A stretch of DNA of 25,841 nucleotides from a virus. The notes under the pieces were generated by a model. The model was given only the letters and a program-made list of their open reading frames with translations. It was not told where the DNA came from and made no database searches. The position numbers and the translations under genes are program-made. Shown here piece after piece: positions 3 through 12,068 of the stretch (the stretch's first letter is position 1; the number at the start of each line of letters is the position of its first letter). The DNA lies in IMG/VR virus record IMGVR_UViG_3300027513_000010. One strand, written 5' to 3'.

Positions 3-2552
3 CCGAACTACGTGCGGGTCTACAACTTCGCCAAGAGCGACTACGAGTACCGGGTTGTTTCCCGATTGTGGGTCGATCATTACGCCGAGTTGAACGGGCC
101 TGACCCGATTGAGTACGTCAGCAAGGTCACGTCAGCCGAGAACATCGTCCAGCTTCCCAATGGCACGGTGATTTACAAAGCGGTGGGTGAGGGCAAGCTC
201 TCGACCGATGCCGGGGTTCGCAAGACGGACATGTTCTTCTACATCAACAACGATGGCCGGGTGGTGAGCTTGCCTGATAGCCATGTCAAGAGTGGCTGGC
301 ATGGGGAGCAAGGCGAGTTCCTCGGGAACATGGTCGCCAACGGCAAGGTGTCCAAAGTGGCGGTCATCGATGACACGTCACCGAACGCCGCAGCCTTCAC
401 GCCGGGTCTCTCGTCAGAGAAGCCCGCCGCCCTGGTTGCCTACGACCCCGCCGAGTTTTCCCACGAGGAAGCTCTGAGCGGTCATTGGACTTCTCTGTTC
501 GGGTTCACCGTCGAAGGCATGGAACATGCTGTTCCGATCCCCGATAGCTCGCTGACTAACTTGCCCAAGCCCGCCGATGCAGTCGATGTCTCCGGTGATG
601 AAACTGCTCCCGACCCACCACCCATTACCGGTGTCCTTGGGGCGATCCATGAAACGCCCGACAAACTGCCGGTGCGGTCAATCACTGATGCCGGTTTGGA
701 AATTTTCGCCCAACGTGACGAGACCGACGCTGGTACCGGTCTTGAGTTTGCTTTCGGGGATGCCGAATACATCGAAGACATGCAAGTGCGTGCTCAGATG
801 GCGAGAGATTCAGAGACCAATAATCGGTTTGTCGAATTCCATTTCAGAATGCCGGAGGACAGGGCCGAGGTCACGTCTGACATCTTGCTCACTGCTTCCA
901 AGGACGTGACCTACGGGAAGTGGGTCGATCTTGATAACTCTCTTGCCAGTGATTTGAAAAAGGGCGATGTCATCTCCGTTCGCAAGTCGGTGATGTCCGA
1001 CCAACTCAAGCCAAGCAATGGCAATGTGCCCAATGTTCGGCTGGTTGCTGATCCGGTTCACATCGGGGAAGACGGCAAGGGCATTCCGATCTACCGACTC
1101 ACCCTGGCCGCATCCGATGGAACGACCGGGGCAATGGACGTGCAGGAACGATCCATGCCGTCGATCAGGCGCTACGAGTGGGACGCCCACGCCATTGCTA
1201 CTTCGACCCCGACCTCGACGGTCAAGCTCACCGACAAGGCAGTGGCGGCGGGGTGGCACGACAACGGCATCATTGGATTCGACAAAGACCCGTCGCTCGG
1301 GGCTATCTCGATGGACGAGACCGGCGCAAAAATCTTCTCGGGGAAGAGCATCAAAGGCGGTGCTGGCTCGGGAGCATCGAGCACGGCTGAGATGGGCAGG
1401 CGTATCGAGCGCAAGTTTGCCGATGGAAGCTACGTCCGTATGAATGCTGTTCCCTCGTCAGTCAGCGGAACATCAGCGGGCAAGGGGTCTTCATACGGGG
1501 AGATACGTCGCTGGAACGAGTCGGGCATGGTCACGATTCGGGTGCCCGAAGCTGTGGCCGAGAACCCCGATGAGTTCCAGGCCGCGGTGAGTCGGGCGAT
1601 GGAGGCAGTCGGGATTCCGCCCGAAGCGCAAGGCCCGGCCACCGATGAGCAGATCGCTCGCTTCGCCCTTGGCAAGCTCTACAAGACCCACTCCCCGCAA
1701 TTCGCCCACCGGGAGGGTGGCGTTCAAGAGTTGTCGCCCAACGATGTCGGCATGGTGAAGGTCTTCGACCGATTGAACAAAGACCTAGAAGCCACGCTCG
1801 GGCGAAAGGTCACAATTGACGATTTGGAAATCCATCTCTTGGAAGATGGCCGCTTCGTGCCGATGCTGAGTAAGGAAGTGGCGAAGGCCATCACAGCCAA
1901 GCAAGGGAACCTTTGGTACCGCCACCGGCTGTACGGCGGCGGTGACGCCACCACTGTCGCTGAGATTCTCTCTAGCCCGAATCGGGGTCTCATGGGCGCA
2001 GCCGAGCGTTTCTCGGTGGGAATTTACGCTGGCGGGCAATCCAAGGAAAGCGACATGTCCTCGGGAGCCGGGAGTCGGGTGTACCTCAGCGGCAAGACCT
2101 ACTCGGCAAAAACCGATGATGAGGGCGTGTTCATGTTCGCCGGAGACCTCATCAATCAGTCGCTCGATATATACACCTCAGCTACCACGGGTGATTCATG
2201 GGGTTATCGGCCCGTTAACAACTCATTTTTGACTCAAGGCGGCATGTTTGAATACATGCAGAAGCAGAAACTAGACCCTCGACAAGTTGCCTACATATTC
2301 GTAAGCGCAAGTCAGCGACAGGACATTCTCGCCAAACTGAAGGCCAAGGGCATCACTGAGATTGGTGGCCGGTCGGTCGAGGAAATCATTCGTAGCTCAG
2401 ACATTCCCTTCAACATGAACGACGATGCGTTTCAAAATATCGGCATGACCGAGGCAGGAAACATCGTGAAGGTCACGGACTTGTTGCCGCCGGAAGTGAA
2501 GGCGCAGCTTCCCACCATCGCCGTCAGTGGTGAGGCCGGAGCAGCGGTATGA
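3..2552 (+). CDS. 5'-truncated very large putative virion-associated protein (>846 aa) with C-terminal ADP-ribosyltransferase-like domain
   Basis: Frame is open to the window edge. C-terminal region reads WYRHRL..EIL..GLMGAAERF..G...GQS..D...G.G.RVYLS....DSWG....FEYM, resembling the H/R..aromatic-S..E layout of ART folds. Stop overlaps the next ATG (ATGA). Confidence 0.75.
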   Translation, partial: PNYVRVYNFAKSDYEYRVVSRLWVDHYAELNGPDPIEYVSKVTSAENIVQLPNGTVIYKAVGEGKLSTDAGVRKTDMFFYINNDGRVVSLPDSHVKSGWHGEQGEFLGNMVANGKVSKVAVIDDTSPNAAAFTPGLSSEKPAALVAYDPAEFSHEEALSGHWTSLFGFTVEGMEHAVPIPDSSLTNLPKPADAVDVSGDETAPDPPPITGVLGAIHETPDKLPVRSITDAGLEIFAQRDETDAGTGLEFAFGDAEYIEDMQVRAQMARDSETNNRFVEFHFRMPEDRAEVTSDILLTASKDVTYGKWVDLDNSLASDLKKGDVISVRKSVMSDQLKPSNGNVPNVRLVADPVHIGEDGKGIPIYRLTLAASDGTTGAMDVQERSMPSIRRYEWDAHAIATSTPTSTVKLTDKAVAAGWHDNGIIGFDKDPSLGAISMDETGAKIFSGKSIKGGAGSGASSTAEMGRRIERKFADGSYVRMNAVPSSVSGTSAGKGSSYGEIRRWNESGMVTIRVPEAVAENPDEFQAAVSRAMEAVGIPPEAQGPATDEQIARFALGKLYKTHSPQFAHREGGVQELSPNDVGMVKVFDRLNKDLEATLGRKVTIDDLEIHLLEDGRFVPMLSKEVAKAITAKQGNLWYRHRLYGGGDATTVAEILSSPNRGLMGAAERFSVGIYAGGQSKESDMSSGAGSRVYLSGKTYSAKTDDEGVFMFAGDLINQSLDIYTSATTGDSWGYRPVNNSFLTQGGMFEYMQKQKLDPRQVAYIFVSASQRQDILAKLKAKGITEIGGRSVEEIIRSSDIPFNMNDDAFQNIGMTEAGNIVKVTDLLPPEVKAQLPTIAVSGEAGAAV

Positions 2553-3343
2553 AGAAGTTCTTCCCCCATCATCCGGCCACGTTGGAGGCACACGGAAGCG
2601 TCGATGGAACGATCAGTTTGGAACTTCTCAAGGAATTCTCGTGGAAAGAGGAAGCAGGCAACGACTATTCCTATGCCGGAGAACGTGACCTTGGTGATGC
2701 GTACAAAGAGGTCTACCTCACAAGCATTGATGACTCGATCTATGGCTATTTCAAGGGTGAAACCAATAATGGATTCAAAATCATTGTCCGTCCTTACAGC
2801 CAATACGATCCGGTCAGAATGGGGATCAGCGCCTACCCCTGGCCGGTGTCCGTGGCGCAGGATTTCCTAGATGGAGAAAACAGCATGTCCCTGAACGCCC
2901 TCGTAGATGACAACGGTGATGTCGCCACTCTGATGCTCGACTCGCCCACGACTAGCTATCTCCGGTACACCGGGCAGTGGTTCATGCTCACCGACATCGA
3001 AGCAATCGGTGACTACGACATCGTCAGCGTGGAAGACAACGCTCTCGATCTGTACGACCCGGCTGACCAATCGGGCAAGTCCGTGAAGATCACGTCGATG
3101 CCGGTGTCTGAGGTCGATGATTTCAGAGTCCAAGTTCGGTACTCCGGCGAGAGTGAGGCTGACGCTCTCAAGCCTCTGCTCACCGAGACCATCACCGCTT
3201 CGCTCACTGTGCCGACCATCGCCTCAGTCCGAGACCTTCCAACCGCAGTCGAGTTCGCCGAGTCCCATCCCGAGTTCCAGTGGTACGTCGAGCGCCGGTC
3301 ACGAGCGCTCGGCTTGGAGATGGAGTTCCCCTGGCGTGAGTAG
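2549..3343 (+). CDS. hypothetical phage protein, acidic, with C-terminal DL..A....WYV.RR.RALG...PW helical motif
   Basis: 264-aa ORF, GGAG RBS at 2538-2541, ATGA overlap with upstream stop. The C-terminal motif resembles one recalled from actinophage head-region proteins. Confidence 0.8.
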   Translation: MKKFFPHHPATLEAHGSVDGTISLELLKEFSWKEEAGNDYSYAGERDLGDAYKEVYLTSIDDSIYGYFKGETNNGFKIIVRPYSQYDPVRMGISAYPWPVSVAQDFLDGENSMSLNALVDDNGDVATLMLDSPTTSYLRYTGQWFMLTDIEAIGDYDIVSVEDNALDLYDPADQSGKSVKITSMPVSEVDDFRVQVRYSGESEADALKPLLTETITASLTVPTIASVRDLPTAVEFAESHPEFQWYVERRSRALGLEMEFPWRE

Positions 3344-5363
3344 TCGTACCTATCCCCGGCCATCGTCCATCGATTCACTGCATCTCAATGAGGCTGCGGT
3401 GCTCGATGAGCTTGAGCTTGTCGAGTGGCACGAGACCGATGCGGCGGTGTGGGCCAGGCGTGTTTTGAAAAACGAGCGGGGCCGGACTCTAAAAGCCCTG
3501 CTTGGGGATAACCCAACGCTTCCCGAAGGGCTGATCGCGGCAGGCACCGACTCGCTGGTTATCGGGTTGACCAGGGACGGACTCATGTATGAGGACGGCC
3601 AGTGGGTCGAGAACGAAGAGATGTGGGGAGCCACCGTCCCGCTCTCGGGCGACGATGTCGCCTTCGTAGCTCGTGCCTTCTCGGAAGGCTGTGACTCGGT
3701 GCTTTTCCGTCCGGTCTTCCCCCTGGCCTGGATTACCACTGACCCCGATCCGGTGCTGGCGGCGGCGGCGATTTCAAAACTGCCGTCGAACACCAAGCTC
3801 GTCGCCATCGTGGACGAACTCGACAAGAACGCAGTCTTGGAATTGATTGCCCTGGCTCCCGGCCCCACTCTCTACCGGCGACATGACGGCAAGTGGTACG
3901 AGGACGAGCAGTGGCTCATCCCGCTCCGCTCTATCGATCCGCCGCCCATCGTCGTGCTCACCGAGGAAGGTCTCCAAGGGAGCGTCATCGAGCAAGTGGA
4001 TGAAGCGACCAAGGGAGTCGAGTTCATCCCCAAGGAAGTGAAGCAGCGGAAGATTCGCTCTTCGGCGGCTCTCGATGTCATCGAGGATCATCTCGGTAAT
4101 TTGGAAATGCAGACGCTTCTCGCCGTCATCAAATCGCCGGAAGGTCTCAAGGGAACCGAGCGGCTCCGGCTCTATTGGACGACCGGCCAAGGCGGGCTGA
4201 CGAAGATCAGATGGGGCACCCCCGGCTCATGGACTCGATGTCACCGACATCTCGTCAAGTACCTCGGGCCGAGGGCCAAGGGCTATTGCACCAATCTCTG
4301 CCAGCGGATGGGTGGGTTCGGAGTGGCTTGTCATGTCGGGACTCGGGGTAGTGCTGCTCCGCTCTTGGCCGCTACCGACGATGACCCCTACGGGGATCGA
4401 ATTTCAAAAGAGGTTCGCAGTCGGTACCCGGCGTTCCCGGCCACCAAGCGCTACAAGCTGAAGCGGAAGCCCACCGGCGATTCCCGCACTCCCTACGCCC
4501 GAGAGGATCGCAAGACCACCCGAGAGCTATCCGATGCCGAGATAGAGCAGCGTCGGGAAGCGGCTCGCAAGTCAGCCCTGGCCCGGCGCAAGGGCCAATC
4601 TGAGAGCCGGGCTTCTCAGTGGAAGACGATGAATCTTCAGCAAAAGGTCGAGCTTGCCGCTCAGTTGGAAGCGGGTGCACGGCGACGGCTGGAAGAGTTG
4701 GAGTCGAAACTGAGGGCCACCGAAGACCCGTTGCTGCGAGCCGACATTCAGGGCGAGATGGACGACATCAGGGACATGCTCGGGGCGAAGGATGAATGGC
4801 TTCGGAACGCCCGATACGACGAACTCAAGCTGGCCGATTCTCAGATCGACAAGGCCGAAGGTGAGGTTGACCGGCTCCGTGATGGCTACGACCGGAAGCT
4901 GGACGCTCTGCGCGCCTCTCGTGACCAAATCCAGGCACAGCTTTCCCTCATCAAACCCGACCCCGATGCGATTCAACGGCGGGCCGATCAGATGGCGGGA
5001 AAGGCCAGTGATTTTCAGGAAGAGGCAAACGCCCTCTTGGAAAAGGCGGCGTATGCCTCGCCGGAGAAAGCCGCTCAACTCACTGCACAGGCCAACCGGC
5101 TCAAAGACCAGGCCAGTGCGGTTTACACGAGCATGGACGAGAACCTCGATCCCACGCTCAAGCTGAGGAACCAGCTTGCCAAGGTTCGCATGGACATCAG
5201 CAATGTCACTTCTGAGAAGGCTCGGAACATCGCCAGCAAGCGATCCGTGGTTGAGAAACTCAAGGACAACCGCTCCCGGCTGGTGCAGGGGTACCGGGAT
5301 GCCAGCGAGTATCTTCGTCGCCGCCGGGGTTCAGGGCAGACCGAAGGGAGCTTCCTCGTGTGA
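3336..5363 (+). CDS. multidomain phage head-region protein with YW..G.GG..KIRWGTPG.WTRC...L.KY motif and long C-terminal coiled coil
   Basis: Start moved to GTG 3336 (GGAG at 3322-3325, overlapping the upstream gene end); the 3117 extension lies inside the previous gene. KIRWGTPG domain at ~4160-4315. The charged helical C-terminal half looks coiled-coil. Confidence 0.8.
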   Translation: MSSRTYPRPSSIDSLHLNEAAVLDELELVEWHETDAAVWARRVLKNERGRTLKALLGDNPTLPEGLIAAGTDSLVIGLTRDGLMYEDGQWVENEEMWGATVPLSGDDVAFVARAFSEGCDSVLFRPVFPLAWITTDPDPVLAAAAISKLPSNTKLVAIVDELDKNAVLELIALAPGPTLYRRHDGKWYEDEQWLIPLRSIDPPPIVVLTEEGLQGSVIEQVDEATKGVEFIPKEVKQRKIRSSAALDVIEDHLGNLEMQTLLAVIKSPEGLKGTERLRLYWTTGQGGLTKIRWGTPGSWTRCHRHLVKYLGPRAKGYCTNLCQRMGGFGVACHVGTRGSAAPLLAATDDDPYGDRISKEVRSRYPAFPATKRYKLKRKPTGDSRTPYAREDRKTTRELSDAEIEQRREAARKSALARRKGQSESRASQWKTMNLQQKVELAAQLEAGARRRLEELESKLRATEDPLLRADIQGEMDDIRDMLGAKDEWLRNARYDELKLADSQIDKAEGEVDRLRDGYDRKLDALRASRDQIQAQLSLIKPDPDAIQRRADQMAGKASDFQEEANALLEKAAYASPEKAAQLTAQANRLKDQASAVYTSMDENLDPTLKLRNQLAKVRMDISNVTSEKARNIASKRSVVEKLKDNRSRLVQGYRDASEYLRRRRGSGQTEGSFLV

Positions 5364-5797
5364 GCCAGACCCTCTATTTTGAAAAACACGAGTCGGTCAT
5401 CGTCGCCGATGGCTTCGGGTTCAAAGCTCCGAAGGATTGGGGGAAAAGAGTTAATGAGCCTGCGCCTGAAGTTCAGGATTCAAAACTCGATTTTGAAATT
5501 GACCCGACCTCGAAACTGAGTGCACTGATCCACGAGTCAGAACTCGATCTGGCTCGGATGACTGCCGAAGGCCGGGCCAAGGTTTCTGAATTGCGTGATG
5601 CGGTAGCTGACCTCGATGTAAAAGCGCTGGTCACATCGGGAGCAGGGCATTTGGAGTTGATCGAGGGACAACGCAATTTGAAAGTGACCGAGATACGCCG
5701 GATCGAAGCCGAGACCGAGACACAGATAGCCCATCAGAAAGAGAGGGTCGCGAGACTGAAGACTCTTCGATCCGAAAAGCGAAAGGAATTGCTGTGA
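5360..5797 (+). CDS. hypothetical coiled-coil protein
   Basis: 145-aa ORF with GTGA overlaps at both ends and GGGAG upstream of the start. Confidence 0.75.
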   Translation: MSQTLYFEKHESVIVADGFGFKAPKDWGKRVNEPAPEVQDSKLDFEIDPTSKLSALIHESELDLARMTAEGRAKVSELRDAVADLDVKALVTSGAGHLELIEGQRNLKVTEIRRIEAETETQIAHQKERVARLKTLRSEKRKELL

Positions 5798-6690
5798 CGT
5801 TGGAAGACGGGATTCACAACGGCCACTCCCCATTCGGGATGGTTCGTGAGGACATCAAGGCGCTGGTCGCCGCGGCCTTCCCGGTAAGACCGCCTCGGGA
5901 ATGGTTCGACAACCCGAACTTCCTGCGACTCTCACCGCTTTCGGTCGAGAACTCGGGACAGTGCCGGGGCCACATCGCCTCGTGGCGACAGTCTCATATC
6001 GGGATGAGTGGTTCGGTACGTGCCCCCAAGTCGAAGAGCAAGTACGCCTTTTTCAAAACTGGCGTGGTCGAGACTGACAAGGGCGACTTCGTGGACGTGG
6101 GACAGATCACGCTCACCGGTGGGCACGCCGACATCAACGCAACCGTGGCCGATGCGGTAGCTCACTACGACAACACCAACTCAGCGATGATGGACGTGAA
6201 TGTGGGCGAGGATCGGTTCGGGATTTGGGTAGCCGGAGCACTCCGGCCCGATGTCTCCGAGAGCCAGCTTCGCATCTTGCGTGCCTCGTCGGTCTCCGGT
6301 GACTGGCGACCGATCAACGGTGGCTTGGAGCTTGTCGCCGTCTGTGCCGTGAATGTGCCTGGCCTCCCTATCCCGAGGGCAAGGGTTGCTTCCGGTCAGA
6401 TGCTCGCTTTGGTCGCTGCCGGGGTCGAGCCGCTGGTCGATCTAGCCCTGGAAGAGATGGTCGATGCCAGCTTCCAAGAGGCCTTCGGGGAGCAGTTGGG
6501 TGAGGTCTACGAGCGGATCGTCGCCCTGGAAGAGAAGAACCCCACCATGACCGCCGCAGAGCGCCGTGAGGCCATCGCTGAGGCCATCGAGACCGTCAGT
6601 GGGGAGACAGAGAGCCGGAGGGAGTCGCTTCGCAGGAACGTCCACAGGGAGGCTGTGAGCGCCTCTCTGCGAAGCCGAGTCCATTCCTGA
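5794..6690 (+). CDS. putative capsid maturation (prohead) protease with scaffold-like C-terminal tail
   Basis: Motifs GGHA (candidate His), GEDRFGIWVAGAL, ASSVSGDW (candidate Ser) and LELVAVCAVNVPG parallel the HK97/assemblin-type protease pattern H..ED..GL....S....L..VS.V..PA. Helical charged tail follows the second ALVAA. Confidence 0.7.
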   Translation: MTLEDGIHNGHSPFGMVREDIKALVAAAFPVRPPREWFDNPNFLRLSPLSVENSGQCRGHIASWRQSHIGMSGSVRAPKSKSKYAFFKTGVVETDKGDFVDVGQITLTGGHADINATVADAVAHYDNTNSAMMDVNVGEDRFGIWVAGALRPDVSESQLRILRASSVSGDWRPINGGLELVAVCAVNVPGLPIPRARVASGQMLALVAAGVEPLVDLALEEMVDASFQEAFGEQLGEVYERIVALEEKNPTMTAAERREAIAEAIETVSGETESRRESLRRNVHREAVSASLRSRVHS

Positions 6691-6691
6691 C

Positions 6692-8803
6692 ATGTCGCTG
6701 ACCAGGGCCGAGTTGCGCCAAAGGGTTCACGGCCCTAACTCGGCCCTGGTCGCGGCTGATTGGAACCCCGACCTTCACCCTCGGGGAAGTGATGGCCGGT
6801 TTATCGAGATTGGCTGGCTCATCAACCTCATCGACATGGCCGGGTTCCGGCACGGTCAGCGGGGGAAGAAAGAAGTCCAGGGTGAGGTCATCGACATCAT
6901 CCCTGACCCCGAGAAACCGGGCGATCCGATCATCCGAGTCAAAATGACCGACCCTCGTTGGGAGGGTGACAAGTTCGGGCACACCTTCGATGCCCGCAGC
7001 TATCAGGTCTCACAGAGGGAACCGACCAAGGCCAAGATTTCAAAACCAAGTGTGCCGCCCACACCGCCACCCGACACTCCGACACCCCCAATCGTGAAGT
7101 CGAGCATGGCGGTGGGCACACCGCTCCCCCCGATGGGTAAGCCCCCTAATTGGGACTCGCTGTCCACATCGGCGAAGCATCAATGGGTCAAGGATCAGAT
7201 GGAGGCTGACCTTGCCGCCTTTCGGGGGGAGCCAACCATTTTCGATCTGGCGGGCACCGGCCCCGAGATGGAGCACGCTCTTGCCGAGCGCTATCGCTGG
7301 CTGACTCACATCGATCCCGATACCGCTCTTCGGGTCGATGCCGTTGTCACCGATCAGCAAGCGTCCACGGTGGGAGACCCGAGGGTGAAGCCCGGTGGCC
7401 CTGGTGCCATCGCTGTCGCCCATCCCGGCACCGACCACCCCGGCGGGATTGGGCCGGTAGCCGGGAAGCGAGCCATCGTGCTCGGGCAGAGCTATTTCCA
7501 AGACGACAAGCTGTGGCAAAAGACCAAGGGGATGAACTCAGGCAAGTCGATGCCTTGGAGTGTGGGCAGTGCACAGGGTGATGAGACCTCAACCCTGGTT
7601 CACGAGTTCGGCCACCAGCGACAGTTCCGGTATCTGTCGGAGACCATGCTTGAGGTCGGTCAGCCGTTTTCAAAAGTGGGGCAGTCTGATGGCTTCGGCA
7701 CCATGCCGGATAGCTCCAACTGGCCGGAGACTCAGGCGGCTCGATACGCGATTCAAAATCTGGCTCCGAGTGCTTACGGCAAGTCCAAGTCCTCGGAGGC
7801 CTATGCCGAAGTGTGGGTCGCGGTGACCACCGACTACGAGCCGGTCAGCCCCGAGCTACAGGCAGCGTGGGACACATGGCACTCCGGCATGAGCATCCCC
7901 TCTCAGATGCCTCAGACCCGCTACGACCCCGCTGAAGTCAAGCCCTATCACATGCTTAGTCCGCAGGAAAAGGACGAGTATTGGGCCGAATACGGGCCTC
8001 TCATCGAGCTTCCTGGCATGAGGGAGCATTACCCCGACACTGCCAAGCTCTATGACGCATGGGAGCCGAACATGGCCCCTACCCCGGCTGGCCCCGAGGA
8101 AGCAGTCCCGATTGATTTTGGAAAGCCGCTTCGATCCACTGTCGGAGCAACCCATCCCGGTTTTGACCAGCGGTTCAATGTCGAGGTCGATGCTTTGGAA
8201 GGACGCTTTGGCGATCTGACCAATGATGCTCTGGCCTACATCGGAACCGGTGAGGACGAGCAGGGCAGAGCATGGTTTTTGGAGGGGTTGCAGTTCCAAG
8301 CCGCCGCTTCATCCAGCCCGTTTGGTTCGATGATGGCTTCGATGGAGGCTGACGCCCTTACCGATGGCGGTGTGGAATCGATTTGGGACTTGCCCTCGAT
8401 GAAAGGCACCTTCGGTCAAGTGATTTCCACTCCCAACCGAATATTGATGATCGTGAACCCGAGACTCGACCCCGATGAGATTCCCGAGTCGGAGCTTTTT
8501 GAACACCCCGGTCTGACCGGGATGCAAGCCACCATCGTCCATGAGTACGGCCACGCCATTCATCGGAGCGTTCAGCGAAAGACGATGGCTAATCCAGATT
8601 CAGCGAGTTATCTTTTGAGTTGGACAGAGATGATGGGGGAGAACCCAATCACGACCTACGGCTCTCGGAGCATGACCGAATCCCTGGCTGAGAAGTTCGT
8701 CCGGTACTACCACGAGATGGAGGGCGGCGAAGGTTGGGAAGAGTTCATCGAAAACAGTCGAGAGATATTGGGTCTTTCCGAAGGGGTCGGAGCAGCGATA
8801 TGA
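6692..8803 (+). CDS. putative virion-associated effector: N-terminal WNPDLHPRG..GRF motif, Pro-rich linker, two tandem zincin metallopeptidase domains
   Basis: HEFGH (7601-7615) with SAY..EAYAE (7796-7810) and HEYGH (8540-8554) with TTY..ESLAE (8678-8692). This is the HExxH plus downstream E pattern of lethal-factor-like zincins seen in MuF-type phage proteins. Confidence 0.75.
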   Translation: MSLTRAELRQRVHGPNSALVAADWNPDLHPRGSDGRFIEIGWLINLIDMAGFRHGQRGKKEVQGEVIDIIPDPEKPGDPIIRVKMTDPRWEGDKFGHTFDARSYQVSQREPTKAKISKPSVPPTPPPDTPTPPIVKSSMAVGTPLPPMGKPPNWDSLSTSAKHQWVKDQMEADLAAFRGEPTIFDLAGTGPEMEHALAERYRWLTHIDPDTALRVDAVVTDQQASTVGDPRVKPGGPGAIAVAHPGTDHPGGIGPVAGKRAIVLGQSYFQDDKLWQKTKGMNSGKSMPWSVGSAQGDETSTLVHEFGHQRQFRYLSETMLEVGQPFSKVGQSDGFGTMPDSSNWPETQAARYAIQNLAPSAYGKSKSSEAYAEVWVAVTTDYEPVSPELQAAWDTWHSGMSIPSQMPQTRYDPAEVKPYHMLSPQEKDEYWAEYGPLIELPGMREHYPDTAKLYDAWEPNMAPTPAGPEEAVPIDFGKPLRSTVGATHPGFDQRFNVEVDALEGRFGDLTNDALAYIGTGEDEQGRAWFLEGLQFQAAASSSPFGSMMASMEADALTDGGVESIWDLPSMKGTFGQVISTPNRILMIVNPRLDPDEIPESELFEHPGLTGMQATIVHEYGHAIHRSVQRKTMANPDSASYLLSWTEMMGENPITTYGSRSMTESLAEKFVRYYHEMEGGEGWEEFIENSREILGLSEGVGAAI

Positions 8804-8961
8804 CACAGCAAGAAAACCCCCAGGACAAGTACCGGCTCTACGGCATCGACAAGAATGGCGACCGGCATGACCTTGGTGTGTTCTCCGATGCCGAGTACGC
8901 CGGAGTGTGGGACTTGTTCGATGAGCTTTATGAGAGTGTTGAAACCGTGGTGCTGACATGA
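8800..8961 (+). CDS. small acidic protein (53 aa), candidate partner/immunity protein
   Basis: ATG 8800 overlaps the upstream stop, with GGAG at 8789-8792; its own stop overlaps the next ATG. Confidence 0.7.
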   Translation: MTQQENPQDKYRLYGIDKNGDRHDLGVFSDAEYAGVWDLFDELYESVETVVLT

Positions 8962-9215
8962 CCACTTATCTCACTCCGATGTGCTACTCCTGTGTGCATC
9001 TCAATCCCGGCGAATTGACATGCACTGCCTTTCCGCAAGGCATCCCCGATGAGATTCTCGATGGCCGGGTCGATCATCGTGAGCCGGTGGAAGGCGACGG
9101 CGGGATTCTCTTTGAGCAGTCGCCGGACTCGCCGGTGCCACCCTTTGAGATGTATCCCTTCGCATCGAAGCAAGCACTAGTCTCGTCGCTTCGTGAGCGA
9201 GTCCACCGGCGCTGA
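8958..9215 (+). CDS. small Cys/His metal-binding protein (CxxCxH..C.AFP.GIP..I..G..DH..P..GD.GI.F) with C-terminal ALVSS-LRERVH extension
   Basis: ATGA overlap. Motif recalled from small genes that follow MuF/zincin-type phage head genes. Confidence 0.8.
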   Translation: MTTYLTPMCYSCVHLNPGELTCTAFPQGIPDEILDGRVDHREPVEGDGGILFEQSPDSPVPPFEMYPFASKQALVSSLRERVHRR

Positions 9216-10684: not shown

Positions 10685-10908
10685 CGGAGCAAGACCTCGT
10701 CAGCAAACGGCACCAGCCGACGATTCCTGATCCACGCCTTGTTACCCCGGTCAGCCGAGAGACCTTCGGTATCGAGTTTCACCAGCGAGCAATATTGCGT
10801 GTATTGATCGTCGTGGTATCGGACGATGGTTCCTGTCTCGTTGTCAAAAAGGGAGTTCTCTTGTGCCTCGGAAGCGGGGAGTATCGAGACTCTCATTCCC
10901 GTTTTCAT
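10681..10908 (-). CDS. small SH3/KOW-like protein, paralogue of 10469..10684
   Basis: Same shared pattern; ATGA overlaps. Confidence 0.75.
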   Translation of the reverse strand: MKTGMRVSILPASEAQENSLFDNETGTIVRYHDDQYTQYCSLVKLDTEGLSADRGNKAWIRNRRLVPFADEVLLR

Positions 10909-11180
10909 GGGAGCAAGTAGGACGCCGCGGCGTTGGTGTCCCTGAACTCAGAGCATCCGCAGATGCCTCCCGGTTTGACGGGAGCAGTGCAAACATCGTG
11001 ACTGTCGCCGCCGATGTGTCCGGTACTTCGATGCCCGCAGAGGCAGACCGGATTGAGGTCTTTGAAACCGAGGCATCCACACCCGTCCTTGTAGCAATCA
11101 CCAGCGGAATTCAGATTGTGGTGGGCGCGCCAGTGACCGCACTGGCAAGGGTCGTTGGTGTATCTCTTCTGCACCGTCAC
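10905..11180 (-). CDS. Cys/His-rich protein with two CxCGH..H..C..CxC..F repeats
   Basis: CQCGH..H..C..CGC..F and CLCGH..H..C..CGC..F; GTGA overlap. Confidence 0.75.
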   Translation of the reverse strand: MTVQKRYTNDPCQCGHWRAHHNLNSAGDCYKDGCGCLGFKDLNPVCLCGHRSTGHIGGDSHDVCTAPVKPGGICGCSEFRDTNAAASYLLP

Positions 11181-12004
11181 TCTTCCTCGGGAAGCTCATC
11201 ACCAAAGAGAAGATCGGCAGCGCTTGGAGACTTGGCCTCAGCCGCCTTCTCAGCGAAAGTCCCGAGAGAACCATCAGCCAGGCCATACAACTCCAAGACC
11301 TTTCCATCCTTGCCGTAGGTCTTGCCGTCGAAACCGGTGTAGGTGACTCCCTCGGCGGGAGTGGCGACCAGCGCCGCCACCCCTCCGTCCAAGCCCTCCA
11401 TCGCCTCGGCCATGCTCGGGTAGGGCCAGCCGTGATTGTCGGCGCAAACCGGGCCGTAGCCTGCGTAGATCGACCGCTCGTCGGTCAGATGGGCGGCACA
11501 GTTGACGCAGATGCCGTAGGTCTTACCGAAGGCCTTGGCCTCTTCCCAAGTGAGCTTGGTGGTTTCGTCCAGGCCTTTCAGCCCGCCTCGGCCTCGGTAG
11601 TCGAACTCCCACTTGGTGAGTGGGCCGGTCTCGGACTCGACTTCGCTCATCCGCTCGACAAGCACCTTCGCCACGGTGTAGCCGTTGCGGGTCGTGTAGA
11701 CCTTGACGTACTGACCGGCTGCGTTCTTGTGCATTCCAGCGGGCGGGTCAACGTAGGTGGTCTTGGGCTTGGGCAGCTTGGGAGCGGCTAGTGCCCGCTC
11801 GATGCAAGCACTCGCATCGCCTTTGAGAAGAACCCCTTCGGGAGCTTCCCCATCGACAAGCCATGCTCCGGCACCATGCCATGTGTCCCAGGCGGCGAGC
11901 CGAATGGCGCAACCCTCGGCGAACTTCGGATCAACCTCACGCTCAGAGAGAAGGGTTTTCAGAAAAGAAACTTGTTTCTCGGTTGCGGGTGCTGGTGCTG
12001 TCAT
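11177..12004 (-). CDS. DUF6011-like Zn-binding domain protein
   Basis: CVNCAAHLTDERSIYAGYGPVCA fits CxxC..LTD..S...G.GP.C; N-terminal ATEKQ..FL motif; ATG 12004 with AGGAG RBS. Confidence 0.8.
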   Translation of the reverse strand: MTAPAPATEKQVSFLKTLLSEREVDPKFAEGCAIRLAAWDTWHGAGAWLVDGEAPEGVLLKGDASACIERALAAPKLPKPKTTYVDPPAGMHKNAAGQYVKVYTTRNGYTVAKVLVERMSEVESETGPLTKWEFDYRGRGGLKGLDETTKLTWEEAKAFGKTYGICVNCAAHLTDERSIYAGYGPVCADNHGWPYPSMAEAMEGLDGGVAALVATPAEGVTYTGFDGKTYGKDGKVLELYGLADGSLGTFAEKAAEAKSPSAADLLFGDELPEEE

Positions 12005-12039
12005 GTCTGGCTCCTGTCTCTTGCTTGCCTTACAAGGCA

Positions 12040-12068
12040 ATTATATCGAAATGAAAATACTAAGTCAA
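12040..12068 (-). promoter_or_regulatory. near-consensus sigma70/SigA promoter TTGACT-N17-TATAAT
   Basis: -35 at 12063-12068, -10 at 12040-12045. Confidence 0.85.

Follow-up and report, generated by a model that had tools for sequence, protein, structure and literature searches.

LRxRVH, a terminal hexapeptide of a head maturation protease and of candidate cargo proteins in an uncultured phage, as a possible removable prohead-targeting tag

The internal proteins IPI-III and Alt of phage T4 carry an N-terminal capsid targeting sequence (CTS) of about 10 residues, which binds the scaffold core and is removed by gp21, which cuts after L/I-x-E. In HK97, the C-terminal region of the gp4 protease reportedly targets proteins, even foreign ones, into proheads, a result attributed to Duda, Oh and Hendrix in 2013. 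To our knowledge, the entry of proteins other than coat and scaffold proteins into the heads of tailed phages is understood only for T4, P1, phiKZ-like phages and HK97. Here we analyze a 25,841-nucleotide stretch of DNA from an uncultured, actinobacteria-type phage (IMG/VR record IMGVR_UViG_3300027513_000010; the whole stretch of 25.8 kb is termed the window). Three nearby proteins encoded in the window, a head maturation protease of 298 amino acids (aa), a 703-aa candidate cargo protein with two HExxH motifs and an 85-aa Cys protein, carry close to a terminus the hexapeptide LR-x-[RN]-VH, which is termed the LRxRVH tag. The distribution of this peptide suggests, with a probability that we consider about even, that it is a removable prohead-targeting tag common to the protease and cargo.

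The LRxRVH tag is similar to the T4 CTS in that it is a short, portable sequence on unrelated proteins with a candidate prohead-protease site, and the gp21 fold matches the core of the window protease. It is different from the T4 CTS in that only one of the four window copies is N-terminal and most copies in relatives are C-terminal or junctional, in that the residues between the tag and the body are hydrophobic-x-A-[A/S] instead of x-E, with a candidate cut after Ala or Ser, and in that the tag occurs in arrays and on the protease itself. HK97 and the window phage would share an N-terminal scaffold domain of the major capsid protein (MCP) and targeting information in the C-terminal part of the protease. 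However, the HK97 signal extends over about 80-127 residues, without a known short motif or known sharing with other proteins, and gp4 has no detectable sequence relation to the window protease, for which Pfam finds no family.

In herpesviruses, the C-terminal tail of the scaffold attaches to the MCP and is cut off at the M-site (PMC4498786). The herpesvirus scaffold/assemblin and the window protease are alike in the class of the protease fold and in the presence of a C-terminal extension. As in the herpesvirus system, a candidate Ala-Ser-type site is located between the body and the tail of the window protease, and a terminal peptide would keep the protein at the shell until cleavage releases the contents. 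In contrast to the herpesvirus tail, the tag has six residues, often forms arrays of two to five copies and is also found at N-termini and on unrelated candidate cargo; the scaffold here is part of the MCP, as its N-terminal domain, and not an extension of the protease. In encapsulins, short cargo-loading peptides at one or the other terminus bring unrelated proteins into an HK97-fold shell, as the LRxRVH tag would do. The encapsulin peptides are not removed, however, have another consensus and operate without a protease or DNA packaging. The likeness is functional only; here, the shell is that of a phage, whose genes include portal, terminase and tail genes. Polyvalent proteins are described, in the passages of PMC5512222 that were searched, as large, multidomain and often zincin-like proteins, which are encoded beside portal and MuF genes and for which packaging and injection are predicted. 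This description also suits the 703-aa protein and its relatives of 985 to 2156 aa. These passages do not mention the LRxRVH tag or the HPRG module that is described below. Precedents for the concept are the CTS of T4, the tail of HK97 gp4, the scaffold tail of herpesviruses, the loading peptides of encapsulins and the predicted packaging of polyvalent proteins (PMC5512222). What is new is the presence of this tag on the protease and on presumed cargo, at either terminus and in arrays, together with a cut site and the HPRG module.

When the window is translated in six frames, LR-x-[RN]-VH gives exactly four matches, and no fifth match is found in any frame. Every copy is encoded on the plus strand, and no more than 14 residues separate it from one end of a real open reading frame (ORF). 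LRRNVH (6628-6645) is located at the end of the predicted helix 254-283 of the protease (5794-6690, plus strand), and LRSRVH (6667-6684) in its predicted helix 286-296, one residue from the stop. LRQRVH (6713-6730) represents residues 8-13 of the 703-aa protein (6692-8803, plus strand), and LRERVH (9189-9206) is followed by only two further residues in the 85-aa Cys protein (8958-9215, plus strand). The initial annotation of this DNA, which had reported four terminal copies in three nearby proteins, is correct in all positions and genes. Order-2 Markov simulation with the same trinucleotide statistics gives an expectation of 0.11 matches per window and a maximum of two matches in 300 runs, and a chance origin of the four copies is excluded. 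The copies are identical to one another at 9-12 of the 18 core bases, and their flanks at 14-21 of 60 bases. A recent DNA duplication as the source of the tag is rejected, because the codons differ and the flanks are unrelated; the initial annotation had named such a neutral duplication as an argument against itself. The conservation among the copies acts on the peptide and not on the DNA, as had been proposed from the differing codons.

The 298-aa protein matches the PHROG head-maturation-protease families 18402 (E value of 3.8e-54), 859 (4.1e-57) and 21470 (2.1e-57), and gives no match in a Pfam search. It is matched by 869 actinophage records, many of which are annotated as capsid maturation protease. 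The AlphaFold2 (AF2) model of the protease, with a mean predicted local distance difference test score (pLDDT) of 69, consists of a beta-rich core (approximately residues 30-190) and a helical tail (residues 211-296), in which three helices are predicted and both tags are located inside helices. Residues 47-188 of the model match T4 gp21 (5jbl_A) with a modest Z score of 6.2 and a root mean square deviation of 3.5 Å over 119 residues; gp21 is the top match among 48,161 chains and the only one that is not a coiled coil. H60, H68, S82, H111, H124, D126 and S168 of the protease are invariant, and may include the catalytic Ser and His residues. ALVAA (6406-6420, plus strand) closes the protease core and precedes the first tag by 69 residues. 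When 29 protease homologues are aligned, A211, L212, V213, A214, A215 and G216 show little or no variation. This sequence may be an autocleavage site that frees the tail, or may be purely structural.

Among the nearest homologues of the protease, of which 120 were compared (50-76% identity, metagenomic with few exceptions), 90 contain 165 strict tags, defined for these homologues as LR-x-[RK]-VH, in the C-terminal extension, with one to five tags per protein. The spacing from tag to tag is mostly 12-23 residues, and the last tag is located at most five residues from the C-terminus in 44 of the 90 tagged homologues. In the alignment of the 29 homologues (A4), L, R and V of the first tag are invariant, as are L299, R300, V303 and H304 of the last tag. 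The extended logo of the tag is hydrophobic-[A/V]-A-[A/S/E]-L-R-x-R-V-H-G. This alignment indicates that the tag peptide is under strong selection, because L, R, V and H are invariant in tails that are otherwise unalignable.

The initial annotation suggested that the phage proteome be scanned for a terminal position of the tag and for its linkage to head genes. Both are observed in G002, a relative with a complete genome of 93.8 kb, whose six frames contain three strict tags, all of them C-terminal and on head-module proteins. Sequence comparison indicates that the tag is restricted to head-module proteins, as judged genome-wide in G002. Outside proteases, all five non-redundant strict matches in 81 loci are located at most eight residues from a terminus. 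Neither random placement nor lack of conservation, which the initial annotation had regarded as unfavourable, is observed, in view of the 90 tagged protease homologues and the terminal position elsewhere. In the distant relative L057, the protease of which is only 48% identical, a 343-aa protein has an HPRG module at its start and ends with LRDRVHGGG. Variants of the form LRxRV[YR], which are not strict tags, are found at the ends of two other L057 proteins, a 753-aa protein (LRRRVYGD) and the protease (LRARVRQAG). A single 659-aa ORF of L101 (1970-3949) unites the protease with three tag-like repeats, an HPRG module and a further domain, and LRGRVHGTQ is its C-terminal end; P0074 is likewise a fusion of the protease to the HPRG module. 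The metagenome locus L102, which is like L101, has two tags at a junction, each of which is followed by ILTA-S or VVA-T. The further domain of the L101 ORF has the pattern ALPxGxYPI...GRAK...HI..RA. It is also found at the end of longer protease homologues of about 400 aa, and stands alone in G002 as a 107-aa protein (67274-67597, minus strand).

The Cys core of the 85-aa protein is phrog_33375 (residues 5-54, with the PHROG match covering 6-54). Its orthologues in L002, L003 and L005, which are 66-73% identical, end with SSLRMRVHGR.., and S76 and S77 are invariant in these three orthologues. Two more distant homologues, one of 66 aa from a Flavobacterium phage, encoded directly after a MuF gene, and one of 72 aa from a Brevibacillus phage, stop after the Cys core and do not have the tagged extension of 30 residues, which is the outcome in favour of the tag of a check that the initial annotation had suggested. 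This comparison indicates that the tag was added to the small Cys protein in one lineage, because the distant homologues are without the extension.

The 703-aa protein begins with the N-terminal tag, followed by ALVAA, the HPRG module at residues ~17-120, an HExxH domain at residues ~150-480 and a second HExxH domain at residues 480-703, with the module boundaries taken from the match ranges in homologue searches. Residues 17-120 represent a widely shared module around WNPDLHPRGxDGRFIE, and residues 150-480 a zincin-like domain that is common to about 20 proteins. No relatives are detected in homologue searches for the region beyond residue 480. The Atlas language-model neighbours of the 703-aa protein include viral peptidase-like clusters, which is a lead only. 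Tblastn gives no match in isolated phages for the 703-aa protein or for the five-tag protein P0208. The homologues P0125, P0134, P0146, P0167 and P0124 have the tag at the N-terminus, as the 703-aa protein does. The zincin orthologue of L002 has a degenerate ALRAFVRR at its N-terminus, and that of L005 (985 aa) has a degenerate MRAFVH at an internal module junction. The gene of the 703-aa protein begins one nucleotide behind the protease gene. Read-through that joins the two proteins is rejected, judged from the sequence only, with a stop after 15 codons, and a +1 frameshift is rejected on the same basis, with TCC-TGA-C offering no plausible slip.

The core of the HPRG module of the 703-aa protein is WNPDLHPRGSDGRFIE (6761-6808, plus strand). 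The module has the pattern [LV][TV]AA-x-[WF]-[ND]P-x-LHPRG-x-DG-[KR]-FIE followed by about 80 residues. Some 100 large phage proteins of up to 2156 aa have one to four copies of it each, placed N-terminally or where domains join. No Pfam or PHROG family was found for it, and a literature search for it gave nothing relevant. When the tags of these proteins are classified as N-terminal (at most 35 residues from the N-terminus), C-terminal (at most 21 residues from the C-terminus) or located 18-30 residues upstream of an internal module, 22 of the 25 strict tags fall into one of these classes. The placement at a terminus or junction holds across about 20 large multidomain architectures. Proteins with the HPRG module are also encoded at L005 10891-13848, L081 7640-9844 and L088 4358-8797, and the module opens gp78 of Gordonia phage Forza and gp67 of GodonK.

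Candidate cleavage sites are located beside the tags. In the window, these are V-S-A-S directly before the second tag (6655-6666, candidate site V-S-A↓S), ALVAA between the N-terminal tag and the HPRG module of the 703-aa protein (6743-6757, candidate site L-V-A↓A) and ALVSS directly before the tag of the Cys protein (9174-9188, candidate site L-V-S↓S), all on the plus strand. The initial annotation had placed ALV[AS][AS] between tag and body in three cases, of which the latter two are confirmed; the third, ALVAA at 6406-6420, marks the end of the protease core instead. [LV][TV]AA precedes nearly every HPRG motif of the ~100 proteins, VTASA is found between tags in many protease tails, and the tag logo has a hydrophobic residue, A/V, A and A/S at positions -4 to -1 on the body side. 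A hydrophobic-x-A-[A/S] site is present within 14 residues of 116 of 189 tags (61%), as compared with a background of 26-42%, and this enrichment is real but modest. The sites of herpesvirus assemblin are, in pseudorabies virus, VQA-S (M-site) and YLQA-T (R-site) (PMC4498786). By its sequence, the hydrophobic-x-A-[A/S] pattern resembles the consensus of the assemblin cut site.

The MCP gene of the window phage is located outside the window, and the MCP of G002 (71588-73609, minus strand, identical to L092 5588-7609, minus strand) was used instead. In this clade, about 38 kb separate the MCP and major tail protein genes from those of the portal and the protease, which are encoded on the other strand; the protease gene of G002 is located at L005 9977-10894 (plus strand). 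The G002 MCP belongs to PHROG 777 (E value of 2e-61). Its AF2 model has helices at residues 2-62, a helix at 261-275 and a strand at 285-291, and its HK97 fold starts at about residue 344. Residues 76-383 of HK97 prohead I (8fqk_D) are aligned to residues 259-660 of the model with a Z score of 15.3, and the D3 prohead (9osb_A, residues 81-394) to residues 257-660 with a Z score of 13.9. The model of this protein indicates that the HK97 fold is preceded by an N-terminal scaffold (delta) domain, with N-terminal helices and a helix-turn-strand element that is joined to the P-domain. The N-terminal domain is nearly invariant in the family, its helices are modelled at a pLDDT of more than 94, and in most relatives the net charge over the first 62 residues is -10 to -18. 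This acidic, helical N-terminal domain would be the most likely candidate for the receptor of the tag.

The MCP alignment contains an invariant V-A-S followed by [L/I/M]-R, which is located within the strand 285-291 of the G002 model. This helix-turn-strand element is aligned with the last part of the scaffold domains of HK97 and D3. PDAR of D3 is P81-A113 (PMC12749128). V-A-S would thus be near the expected maturation cut, and is kept as a mere candidate site because it is inside a predicted beta-strand.

These results suggest the following mechanism. The protease would carry one to five copies of the LRxRVH tag on its C-terminal tail, and proteins meant for the capsid interior would carry it at a free end, or at junctions when they are made as polyproteins; in the window, the cargo would be the two-zincin protein and the small Cys protein. 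During procapsid assembly, the tag would dock the protease and the cargo to an internal receptor, most likely the acidic N-terminal domain of the MCP. For this basic tag, a helix is predicted, and L and V would be located on one face of this helix, flanked by R, R and H. After assembly, the protease would cut hydrophobic-x-A↓[A/S] between the tag and the body, so that the bodies come loose inside the head. The initial annotation had proposed a portable prohead cargo tag that is borrowed from the scaffold. The tag is conserved, terminal or junctional, linked to head genes and appended, in agreement with this proposal, but its origin in the scaffold does not hold: in this clade, an N-terminal domain of the MCP is the scaffold, and the tail of the protease is not, so that the cargo would have the tag in common with the protease tail and would not have borrowed it from a scaffold.

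Several results weigh against prohead targeting by a removable tag. The presence of the tag does not co-vary with the N-terminus of the MCP, which is equally acidic in tagged and tag-free phages, so that nothing singles this domain out as the receptor. The tag is not found in eight cultured actinophages examined (Forza, GodonK, GMA2, DSL-LC01, Phaedrus, Puhltonio, Danyall and Tyrumbra), all of which have the protease family. The enrichment of cut-like sites is only modest because the tails are Ala-rich. The C-terminal tags of L057 (KAVLRDRVH and RETLRRRVY) have no recognisable cut site in front, and removal of the tag cannot be universal because several C-terminal tags are of this kind. Finally, the N-terminal tag of the 703-aa protein continues the spacing of the repeats of the protease tail across the 1-nt gene boundary, and could therefore be a relic of a fused ancestor.

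If prohead targeting by the LRxRVH tag is true, a large group of soil phages with HK97-type capsids would use a six-residue, position-independent address. The tag would label candidate capsid cargo among proteins of unknown function, likely injected effectors or anti-defence proteins, would allow foreign proteins to be brought into HK97-like shells by means of a very small tag, and would provide a testable link between herpesvirus-style release, with an Ala-Ser cut of a shell-binding tail, and the loading of phage cargo. A broader grammar of capsid cargo is possible, but we propose it tentatively and regard it as rather doubtful: LRxRVH docks to the acidic scaffold domain of the MCP, hydrophobic-x-A↓[A/S] is cut, LHPRGxDGKFIE is retained as a second adaptor and a variable effector follows. 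If this is true, arbitrary modules would be loaded and released as separate genes or as beads-on-a-string polyproteins, and the protease would be addressed in the very way in which its substrates are, in a large and so far uncultured clade of actinobacteria-type phages.

LRxRVH might instead serve for substrate recognition by the protease, as an extended prime-side or exosite motif that marks cuts, and not for targeting. Its role would then be the self-destruction of the protease tail and the separation of polyprotein modules. The tags at domain junctions of polyproteins, beside hydrophobic-x-A-[A/S] sites, are consistent with this role, and the invariant V-A-S-[L/I/M]-R of the MCP, near the position where the scaffold domains of HK97 and D3 end, resembles A-S-L-R of the tags. 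However, the R-V-H part is not conserved at this MCP site, and the predicted beta-strand in which the site is located is a poor place for a scissile bond. In addition, many copies are located one to five residues from the C-terminus or seven residues from the N-terminus, where a cut frees almost nothing, the N-terminal copies have no small-residue site in front, and in many tails the cut-like VTA↓SA is located apart from the tag, between two tags. Substrate recognition is the main alternative to targeting, but an unlikely role of the tag.

It is improbable that the tag serves another interaction, such as pairing of helices between the protease tail and the cargo, by which the cargo would ride in on the protease, portal binding or DNA binding. 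The predicted helices in arrays would suit pairing, but helices that are both basic pair unfavourably. The basic nature of the tag would suit DNA binding, for which six residues are short. As for the portal, the 838-aa protein that is encoded directly downstream of the portal gene in G002 ends with the variant LRRRAYG, and strings similar to A[AS]LRxRVY are present near the N-termini of Gordonia phage portals. These strings are, however, located in phages with tag-free proteases and may be coincidental. They are AASLRTRVY, LRNRVY and MRTRVY in Forza, GodonK and GMA2, at residues 45-58, with the portal genes at L081 5903-7633, L088 2534-4348 and L090 5963-7717.

That the tags outside the protease are functionless leftovers of the tail repeat array, produced by fission and recombination of a protease-cargo polyprotein, would explain the N-terminal copy on the 703-aa protein, with the 1-nt distance between the protease stop and the next start and the tag spacing that runs on, and such joined proteins exist in the L101 ORF and P0074, but it is highly improbable in view of the tag of the Cys protein, which is located 2.3 kb away in another gene and kept in orthologues, of the terminal tags on two further, different proteins of L057, of the codons that diverged while the peptide was kept, and of the terminal placement across about 20 unrelated architectures.

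The remaining genes of this region are also encoded on the plus strand. An 849-aa protein that is truncated at the 5' end of its gene is encoded at 3-2552, followed by proteins of 264 aa (2549-3343), at most 748 aa (listed as 3117-5363) and 145 aa (5360-5797), and a 52-aa protein (8803-8961) is encoded between the 703-aa protein and the Cys protein. The protein of at most 748 aa has a coiled-coil tail and a Cys-rich segment that is conserved. Downstream of the gene of the Cys protein, the gene direction flips in the ORF list of the window. The true start of the 748-aa ORF is probably near position 3340, because its listed start overlaps the gene of the 264-aa protein by 227 nt. The Cys-rich segment of this ORF is phrog_6439 (residues 344-401) and is followed by a long coiled-coil region; the same segment is found at the C-termini of Forza gp82 and GodonK gp71. 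The 145-aa protein, which is encoded upstream of the protease, ends with VARLKTLRSEKRKELL (5756-5773), and its G002 counterpart ends with RVASLRRLRSEKRK. This ending may be a degenerate fifth tag, with V-A-S in front.

Several small non-structural proteins of the window and of G002 have a C-terminal [D/E/Y]LLP or a near variant. In the window, ASYLLP and ADLLFGDELPEEE are the ends of proteins encoded at 10905-11180 and 11177-12040 (both on the minus strand). In G002, the ends ADELLP, SAELLP and YLLP are found at 86617-86865, 88627-88911, 88908-89222, 89616-89822 and other positions. The LLP ending is possibly another C-terminal tag, distinct from LRxRVH, for instance one that serves a clamp, chaperone or protease adaptor.

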